Below are positions 2,809 to 3,947 of a stretch of DNA of 3,947 nucleotides, in pieces (within the stretch, counting starts at the first letter, position 1; each line of letters starts with the position of its first letter). The notes below the pieces were generated by a model. That model had not been told where the DNA came from and ran no database searches. It was given only the letters and a program-made list of their open reading frames with translations. The position numbers and the translations under genes are program-made. The DNA lies in contig CH709157.1 in NCBI GenBank assembly GCA_000004695.1, forward strand, positions 1 through 3,947, given 5' to 3'. Source of the DNA: Dictyostelium discoideum (lineage: Eukaryota).

Positions 2809-3114
2809 TTACATCAGGTGTTTGTACTGACCAATTAAGGTATCGGATAATTGATAATCGGTTGGAACATCGAAATTGTTACTTGATTCATCTTCACTTT
2901 GTTCATTCTCGGTGTCAGAGATATCATGAGAAGGTTGGCTACGTGAATTGGTATTAGATGAGAACATAGGTTCTTTCATGAATCTTGTAAAGACTAGGGA
3001 AAGGTTGTTGATTTGATCCTCCATTGACTTCATTCTTAAATCAAAGGATTCAGCGCTATTATAGGCAGAGGTACTACTACTAGAGGCATCATTATTATTA
3101 ACAGTGGTAGACAT
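2809..3114 (-). CDS. Hypothetical 101-aa Ser/Asn-rich acidic protein
   Basis: ATG at 3112-3114 in the context taaaatATGtct, with an in-frame TAA two codons upstream, so the start is bounded. Product: MSTTVNNNDASSSSTSAYNSAESFDLRMKSMEDQINNLSLVFTRFMKEPMFSSNTNSRSQPSHDISDTENEQSEDESSNNFDVPTDYQLSDTLIGQYKHLM, stop TAA at 2809-2811. Base composition is distinctly less AT-rich than both flanks. No homologue was recognised. Confidence 0.45.
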   Translation of the reverse strand: MSTTVNNNDASSSSTSAYNSAESFDLRMKSMEDQINNLSLVFTRFMKEPMFSSNTNSRSQPSHDISDTENEQSEDESSNNFDVPTDYQLSDTLIGQYKHLM

Positions 3115-3235
3115 ATTTTATTGTTGATATCTAAAATTATAATATGAGAAAAATAATAATATTAAAAATTAATAAAGAGAAATAATTATTTGTATAAAAT
3201 TTGTGTGTGTGTGTATCTTAAATATATATAGGAGG
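3115..3235 (-). promoter_or_regulatory. Putative promoter region of the 2809-3114 ORF: A/T-rich leader, TATA-like atatatata (3222-3230), (TG)6 (3202-3214)
   Basis: The TATA-like run lies about 110 bp upstream of the ATG on the coding strand. The composition is typical of amoeba 5' flanks. No transcript evidence. Confidence 0.3.
3202..3214. repeat. (TG)6 dinucleotide repeat
   Basis: tgtgtgtgtgtgt read directly. Confidence 0.85.
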
Positions 3236-3333
3236 AATTCCCAAATAAAATAAATCAAATTGTTTTAGTTTTTAGTGCCACTATTTATACGTTTTTATTT
3301 TCTTAAAAATTTCGCAAAATCAAAAAAATAAGA

Positions 3334-3437
3334 GTTTTCGACCCTTCACAACTTTGTGCATAGTGTCGGTTCGGAATTTTTCAGTTTTTCGACCTTGCGC
3401 AATGATCGCGTCATTGTGCCGGTTCGAAATTTTTTAC
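3334..3437. repeat. Two degenerate ~50-bp tandem units, each ending in a B-box-like ggttcgRaatttt motif; a third, more degenerate ttcgaaaatttttt unit follows
   Basis: Unit A at 3334-3383: gttttcgacccttcacaactttgtgcatagtgtcggttcggaatttttca. Unit B at 3384-3437: gtttttcgaccttgcgcaatgatcgcgtcattgtgccggttcgaaattttttac. Identity is roughly 70-75%. Unit B contains a small hairpin caatga-tcgcg-tcattg (3399-3416). Confidence 0.55.
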
Positions 3438-3464
3438 TTTTCTTTCGAAAATTTTTTATTCTTC

Positions 3465-3482
3465 GAATGTTCTAGAACATTC
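3465..3482. promoter_or_regulatory. Canonical heat-shock element: four contiguous perfect alternating nGAAn/nTTCn pentamers inside a perfect 18-bp palindrome
   Basis: cGAAt gTTCt aGAAc aTTCt, i.e. gaatgttctagaacattc, which is self-complementary about the central ctag. The overlapping ttcgaatgttctag matches the classical CTnGAAnnTTCnAG consensus at 12 of 14 positions. A weaker fifth pentamer follows (taaaaa). Confidence 0.7.
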
Positions 3483-3536
3483 TAAAAAATTATCTTAAAT
3501 ATTTGGGAAATTCAAATAAATAAATGTTATTCATAA

Positions 3537-3551
3537 TATATATATATATAT
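3537..3551. repeat. (TA)7.5 microsatellite marking the 3' truncation point of the RT fragment
   Basis: tatatatatatatat read directly. On the minus strand it translates as …YHIYIYI…, i.e. non-RT sequence straight after the RPVLDL motif. Confidence 0.85.
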
Positions 3552-3558
3552 GATAATA

Positions 3559-3933
3559 TAAATCGAGAACTGGACGATGTAGATTCGTTCCAGGTTTTGG
3601 AACCGTAAACACGTTGGAGTAAAAAACGCGCTTTGAATAACGGTTTGGAAGTACTTGTTCGATGGCATCGTCTAATAACAAGTCTTGTACTTCCTTTGTG
3701 ATGCAATCTGATTTCGGACCCTCTGGAATTGAAATCGGAATTGGGTTTAGCATCGGCTTGAAGTTTGGAAGCAGATGGACTTTTAATCCATTTACGACCT
3801 CTTGACAAAAGTTTGGAAGACCCAATTCTTTCCAAACTTGTTTGTGGTGGAACAGACGTCCACCTACTGGTAAGTTTACTTCTTGTTCTTCTGAAAACGG
3901 TTGTTGGTACCGTTGGCAGACTTGGTATTGTTG
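3559..3933 (-). pseudogene. Truncated reverse-transcriptase N-terminal fragment of a second retroelement (DIRS-like or retrovirus-like RT; DIRS-1 if the host is Dictyostelium)
   Basis: Minus-strand frame, TAG at 3934-3936 then open: QQYQVCQRYQQPFSEEQEVNLPVGGRLFHHKQVWKELGLPNFCQEVVNGLKVHLLPNFKPMLNPIPISIPEGPKSDCITKEVQDLLLDDAIEQVLPNRYSKRVFYSNVFTVPKPGTNLHRPVLDL. The GGRLxxFxxxW…G…P segment followed by F-VPK-(K/P)-G…RPV-DL is the conserved entry to RT domain 1. Compare retroviral VKKPGTNDYRPVQDLR and DIRS-type F.VPK..G..RPV.nL, both recalled from memory. Homology stops at the (TA)n run. The track ORFs 3490..3825 and 3527..3835 are this frame and an overlapping spurious frame. Confidence 0.6.
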
Positions 3934-3947
3934 CTACCCCTGATGCA

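Follow-up and report, generated by a model that had tools for sequence, protein, structure and literature searches.

The 3947-bp window analysed here is the whole of an unplaced contig of Dictyostelium discoideum AX4, and it contains an 18-nt palindrome with the form of a heat-shock element (HSE). The question that this locus raises is to which genetic unit the palindrome belongs, and which transcripts it would place under heat-shock control. An earlier note had read the motif as a perfect four-unit HSE, possibly within a DIRS-type terminal repeat, next to a DIRS-like RT fragment, and had considered that it could also drive a small ORF of 101 aa.

The retrotransposon DIRS-1 (also Tdd-1; Zuker et al., 1984; Cappello et al., 1984, 1985; GenBank M11339) was described in the same organism as the window, and the heat-shock promoter of its repeats is already known, being textbook knowledge for Dictyostelium transposons since 1983-84. 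The titles of Zuker et al. (1984) and Cappello et al. (1984) state this promoter explicitly, and the passage of PMC2685390 that cites both papers describes the repeats as harbouring an active heat-shock promoter; by these titles and citations, its publication dates from 1983-84. The left LTR is the promoter of a 4.5-kb sense mRNA that itself contains little left LTR, a 900-nt antisense RNA called E1 appears upon heat shock or other stress and is not seen in standard axenic growth, the right repeat additionally drives a long antisense RNA, and DIRS-1 RNA accumulates during development too (PMC3950715). In GFP reporters, both ITRs are strong promoters (PMC4482531). DIRS-1 is silenced by RNAi and located in centromeric heterochromatin, and its RNA is under post-transcriptional control by RrpC and AgnA (PMC3950715, PMC7192593). 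Literature searches for HSF or HSE work in Dictyostelium returned nothing relevant, and one for papers naming both DIRS-1 and a heat shock element came back empty. In this work, the window was compared with seven related loci amounting to 126 kb in total, which are named below (as L002, L003, etc.) where coordinates are given.

A four-unit heat-shock element at 3465-3482

The canonical eukaryotic HSE consists of inverted nGAAn pentamers bound by HSF trimers, and the Pelham box, CTnGAAnnTTCnAG, is an older formulation of it. The motif at 3465-3482, GAATGTTCTAGAACATTC, is an exact 18-nt palindrome, identical to its own reverse complement and with no further extension beyond 18 nt. Written as GAAtgTTCtaGAAcaTTC, it comprises four in-register GAA/TTC units with two-base spacing, an HSE being defined by a run of three or more inverted nGAAn units in the same register. 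The four-unit pattern, GAAnnTTCnnGAAnnTTC, has its single match in the whole window at this position, with 0.01 matches expected by chance, and it was matched in 1 of 200 dinucleotide-preserving shuffles of the window; the three-unit pattern is matched on both strands, against an expectation of 0.05. The Pelham consensus is matched with a single mismatch at two overlapping sites, 3462-3475 and 3472-3485; the rest of the window has no match at one mismatch or fewer. These figures bear out the earlier description of the motif as a perfect palindromic four-unit HSE. With four contiguous in-register units and two overlapping near-matches to the Pelham box, the motif resembles the canonical element; unlike it, the motif does not directly adjoin a conserved TATA box, but lies ~175 bp upstream of one.

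The distances previously given to the neighbouring features were also correct: 81 bp separate the HSE from the near edge of the RT fragment (3563), and 351 bp, where ~350 bp had been claimed, from the ATG of the 101-aa ORF (3114, minus strand). Scans of the window for RNA families (Rfam, E<=1) and for tRNAs returned none, and a scan of 3100-3600 for bacterial-type promoters and terminators, which is irrelevant for a eukaryote, gave background-level matches only.

The DIRS-1 left terminal repeat around the element

The HSE is placed within an intact DIRS-1 left inverted terminal repeat (left LTR/ITR) of 328 bp at 3235-3562, delimited by published primers and by recurrence, which reads on the minus strand from 3562 to 3235; the 18-mer occupies its positions 81-98 counted from the outer end, and is the sole HSE-like site within the repeat. 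The left and right terminal repeats of DIRS-1 were cloned by Friedrich et al. (2015), whose primers are given in their S1 Table (PMC4482531). All 31 nt of element sequence in the left-LTR forward primer DM_132, TTTATATTATCATATATATATATATATTATG, agree with 3532-3562 of the minus strand. The left-LTR reverse primer DM_133 starts, after a BglII tail, with GAATTCCCAAATAAAA, and its first 16 element-specific nucleotides match 3235-3250, while a short indel sets its 3' part apart from the inner end of the window repeat; the window copy is thus not identical to the cloned reference. A third primer, the inner one for the right LTR, matches with its core at 3250-3268, and the left-repeat block recurs in D. 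discoideum loci at 90-97% identity.

[quoted passage not shown] The outermost 33 nt of the window repeat (3530-3562, minus strand) are complementary to the left part of this region. Towards the inner end, a TATA box, TATAAATA (context GTATAAATAG), is found on the minus strand at 3282-3289, i.e., repeat positions 274-281, ~175 bp downstream of the HSE and ~47 bp short of the inner end. It is invariant across all full repeat copies, within the inner conserved block, and probably acts as a functional TATA box; its position fits the observation that little left LTR is contained in the sense mRNA (PMC3950715).

The presence of the exact left-LTR primer site, together with the inverted repeats and the ICR in related loci, upheld the proposal of a DIRS-1-type terminal repeat around the HSE. 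The proposed bounds (3160-3520) had to be moved to 3235-3562: 3160-3234 was rejected as repeat sequence, being absent from right-repeat copies, and belongs to a leader at 3115-3234.

As a side observation, the repeat contains about six TTCGA(A/C) motifs at 3335-3470 (near 3337, 3369, 3388, 3421, 3443 and 3461). Some of these derive from an internal duplication of ~51 bp, one copy of which is missing in the repeats of D. cf. discoideum.

Leader and truncated ORF1

Downstream of the repeat on the minus strand, the unique leader (3115-3234) extends to the start codon of ORF1, and repeat, leader and ORF1 are contiguous in L002 (two copies), L005 and L006. Right-repeat copies lack the leader, their similarity ending at position 313 of the repeat. 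ORF1, encoding GAG, follows on the minus strand at 2819-3114 and is truncated after codons 1 to ~98, homology to other copies ending at 2819. The annotated 101-aa ORF (2809-3114, minus strand), whose stop lies just past this junction, is identical to DDB_G0294232 of D. discoideum AX4. Its 34 homologues all come from D. discoideum or D. cf. discoideum, which indicates that the ORF is part of a repeat. Longer ORF1 copies go on MVNNQGLLVEE..., and other copies continue ...QYKHMVNNQGLLVEE...; in L006, a full ORF1 of 336 aa has the same start as the 101-aa ORF of the window.

The 101-aa ORF was accordingly rejected as an independent small heat-inducible gene, since it is the start of the 336-aa ORF1. 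As to the suggestion that the HSE could drive this ORF: because the ORF is the truncated start of DIRS-1 ORF1, the left repeat would be its natural promoter.

Separately, internally deleted DIRS-1 copies were observed in P0031 and at L002 10292-12690, in which ORF1 passes, after its ~50 N-terminal residues, straight into the beginning of the RT-ORF.

Nested arrangement of the window

On the outer side of the left repeat, 3563-3947 (minus strand) is a fragment of a second DIRS-1 copy, comprising the end of ORF1/GAG and the overlapping start of the RT-ORF, and breaking off at RT motif 1 (...VPKPGTNLHRPVLDL). The GAG end, read from 3947 to 3876, is ...NNRFQKNKK*, its frame ending ...GSNNTKSANGTNNRFQKNKK*, and this C-terminus matches that of the intact 336-aa ORF1 of L006; the overlapping RT-ORF frame reads ...VNLPVGGRLFHHKQVWKELGLPNF...VFTVPKPGTNLHRPVLDL. 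Uninterrupted copies in L003 and L002 run past the break into the RT motifs KLDIKKAY, MPFGLSTAP and YLDDLL. A Pfam search of the DIRS-1 fragments of the window alone gave no matches: their sequence falls outside the RT core that Pfam models, and no Pfam family covers GAG.

The junction between the left end of the inserted DIRS-1 copy and the target copy was located at 3559-3562 by alignment with uninterrupted RT sequence, the BLAST blocks overlapping over four nucleotides, TAAA, that are common to both partners. With TAAA only, and with one insertion end visible, the junction fits an insertion into another DIRS-1 copy without a long target-site duplication; preferential insertion of DIRS-1 into DIRS-1 is stated in the title of Cappello et al. 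(1984). The RT fragment, previously noted as a neighbour of the HSE, belongs by this alignment to a different, interrupted DIRS-1 copy.

At the opposite end, positions 1-2813 correspond, on the minus strand, to the 5' part of a gypsy-type LTR retrotransposon, annotated as DDB_G0294228 (partial), which cuts DIRS-1 ORF1 at 2813-2819. It consists of a 5' LTR (~2813 to 2520), a long AT-rich leader, a degenerate gag from an ATG at 1797 with several stops and frameshifts, and a DTG aspartic protease (ILDTGS). The LTR recurs in L005 on both sides of a gene of 1713 aa with RVT_1, RNase H and integrase matches, in a relative of ~6.7 kb. To judge from the size of Skipper, the gypsy-type element of the window is probably Skipper. 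Within the gypsy-type leader, a ~40-nt direct repeat (TAACTGTTATTCCACTAATAATTTATATTGTGGTGTCTTT) was also seen in three to four copies, which lie at 1907-2092 and 2266-2282, and a 21-nt triple repeat occurs at 2436-2495.

The contig is thus a three-layer nest, in which a gypsy-type element lies in a DIRS-1 copy that itself lies in another DIRS-1 copy. The same locus is present in a second strain assembly (L002 7650..3706) with 99.8% identity.

Architecture of the family in related loci

Among the related loci, left-type copies (repeat positions 1-328 followed by ORF1) and right-type copies (1-313) are found in opposite orientations relative to the element bodies. The window itself has one repeat; that the repeats are inverted and not direct is seen in L006, with arms at 322-415/3109-3202 and 527-589/2925-2987, where the terminal inverted repeats flank ORF1 and a recombinase fragment. 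In the same locus, ICR pairing joins 299-355 with 622-678 at 98%, and the called genes have Phage_integrase and RVT_1 matches. In L003, 18788-18820 is an exact (100%) inverse match to the outer 33 nt of the window repeat; it lies between the end of the recombinase ORF and the right repeat, and is followed by right-extension sequence. Two overlapping ORFs upstream of this right repeat have, respectively, RNase H plus Dam-type methyltransferase matches and phage-integrase SAM-like matches. [quoted passage not shown]

Two further observations were made in these loci. At L002 2299-2650, a repeat joined to ORF1 is left-type at its inner end and right-type at its outer end, with a 27-nt right extension, a chimera that fits the model of a left repeat rebuilt from a right one. 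In the transposon-rich contig of L003, a gene called at 3291-4139 has Pfam matches to Ribosomal_L2_N and Ribosomal_L16 and may be an organelle-derived insert.

Compared with DIRS-1, the window therefore shares an exact match to the outer primer of the left LTR, a repeat of 328 bp followed by ORF1/GAG, and outer 33 nt complementary to the ICR, and its related copies have the tyrosine-recombinase and RT/RNase H/methyltransferase ORFs as well as an inverted right repeat with its extension. Unlike a full DIRS-1, the copy in the window is limited to the left repeat, the leader and ~98 ORF1 codons. Judged by its sequence, the window repeat is a DIRS-1 member and not merely similar to one, every defining feature that could be tested having been found.

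Recurrence and conservation of the element

In the 126 kb of related loci, 12 of 12 matches to the four-unit HSE lie inside DIRS-1 terminal-repeat copies, left and right; for instance, the right repeat of L003 has the same 18-mer at 19127-19144. The site is covered by 22 copies other than that of the window, 12 of which have the perfect four-unit form (one of these being the locus of the window in the second strain). The remaining 10 of the 22 do not: in three the fourth unit is changed (CATGA), one has a C->T change, one has the site deleted, and a 1-nt insertion, GAATGTTCtTAGAACATTC, is present in five, which all come from D. cf. discoideum. The perfect HSE is thus not strictly required for the persistence of a copy.

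Between D. discoideum and D. cf. discoideum, the consensus repeats are identical over positions 21-140, which include the HSE, and nearly identical over 251-328, which include the TATA box, whereas the middle is divergent or deleted. As far as these alignments indicate, the HSE is part of a conserved block, but this conservation is not specific to the 18-mer.

The copies with the insertion were located at L006 2910-3197, 5553-5822, 6387-6663 and 9586-9880, and at L007 18335-18625. In these, which represent about half of the D. cf. discoideum repeats, the four-unit register is split into two two-unit halves, while the others are perfect. This variant could mark a subfamily with altered heat responsiveness.

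Discussion

The reading that we favour, with high confidence, is that the motif at 3465-3482 is the DIRS-1 heat-shock element, located 81-98 nt from the outer end of the ~330-bp inverted terminal repeat. As the 18-mer is the sole HSE-like site in the repeat, it would correspond to the published heat-shock promoter element.

That the palindrome arose by chance and has no function could be considered in a genome that is very AT-rich and has many short inverted repeats; this reading is effectively refuted, with 0.01 matches expected, 1 of 200 shuffles matched, and the motif recurring at the same repeat position in two lineages and nowhere else in 126 kb. It is also very unlikely, though less remote than chance, that the palindrome has been conserved for a reason other than HSF binding, such as a site for the tyrosine recombinase, a developmental transcription factor or a structure of the cDNA intermediate, with the fit to an HSE being secondary. 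Such a role would agree with the conservation of the entire outer block (positions 21-140), in which the 18-mer is not singled out, with the accumulation of DIRS-1 RNA in development (PMC3950715), and with the insertion in about half of the D. cf. discoideum copies, which breaks the register and keeps both halves. The repeat, however, is without any other HSE-like site, and chance would supply 0.01 four-unit in-register matches per window.

A much more serious possibility, which we rate at somewhat below even, concerns the copy and not the element: the function would be real for DIRS-1, while the copy in the window would be an inert relic from which, through RNAi or centromeric silencing or through unstable transcripts, no heat-induced RNA arises. 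The truncation after ~98 ORF1 codons and the nesting between other transposon fragments point in this direction, as do the centromeric position of DIRS-1 clusters with the post-transcriptional control of the RNA by RrpC and AgnA (PMC3950715, PMC7192593), and the lack of E1 in standard axenic growth (PMC3950715). Against it, the repeat is intact, with an exact primer site at its outer end and with HSE and TATA box unchanged, and isolated ITRs are strong promoters in reporters (PMC4482531); the 99.8% identity of the locus in the second strain assembly is uninformative about expression.

For the favoured reading, the history of the locus and the mode of action of the motif can be outlined as follows. 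The DIRS-1 copy with the HSE integrated into the RT-coding sequence of a DIRS-1 copy that was already there, and its own ORF1 was later cut by the gypsy-type LTR retrotransposon. HSF trimers, which are known from the literature to bind inverted GAA units, would bind the four units of the window copy as well, and binding would increase the transcription that originates in the inner part of the repeat, where the TATA box lies. From the left repeat, transcription would proceed inward into ORF1 and yield the sense mRNA; from the right repeat, which has the same sequence inverted, it would proceed inward in antisense and yield the heat- or stress-induced 900-nt E1. Since the repeats are inverted, the same HSE-plus-TATA unit would read inward from both ends. 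In the window copy, the HSE would enhance minus-strand transcription starting near 3255, and the transcript would run through the GAG stub into the neighbouring element.

Stress-responsive promoters are also carried by the LTRs of other retrotransposons. Plant examples are among those cited in PMC2685390. Like them, DIRS-1 has a stress-responsive cis element in its terminal repeat; unlike them, its repeats are inverted, so that the same element would drive a sense RNA from the left end and an antisense RNA from the right end.

The earlier expectation of heat-inducible transcription holds, according to the literature, at the level of the DIRS-1 family. The copy in the window may be silent, in view of the RNAi silencing of DIRS-1 and its centromeric heterochromatin. 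We consider it improbable, albeit less so than a non-HSF role of the palindrome, that the intact left repeat acts as a free-standing heat- or development-inducible promoter, whose transcript would traverse the GAG stub of 98 codons and then enter, in sense orientation, the gypsy-type element with its 5' LTR and gag. If this were true, stress-induced activity of a DIRS-1 promoter would be coupled to the transcription of a second retroelement (probably Skipper) or, alternatively, to non-coding RNA arising in a cluster that is probably centromeric.

Beyond annotation, the finding has little significance. What it yields is a more accurate account of the contig, in which DDB_G0294232 turns from a gene of unknown function into the truncated start of a DIRS-1 GAG, and the three-layer nesting around it is typical of DIRS-1-rich centromeric clusters.
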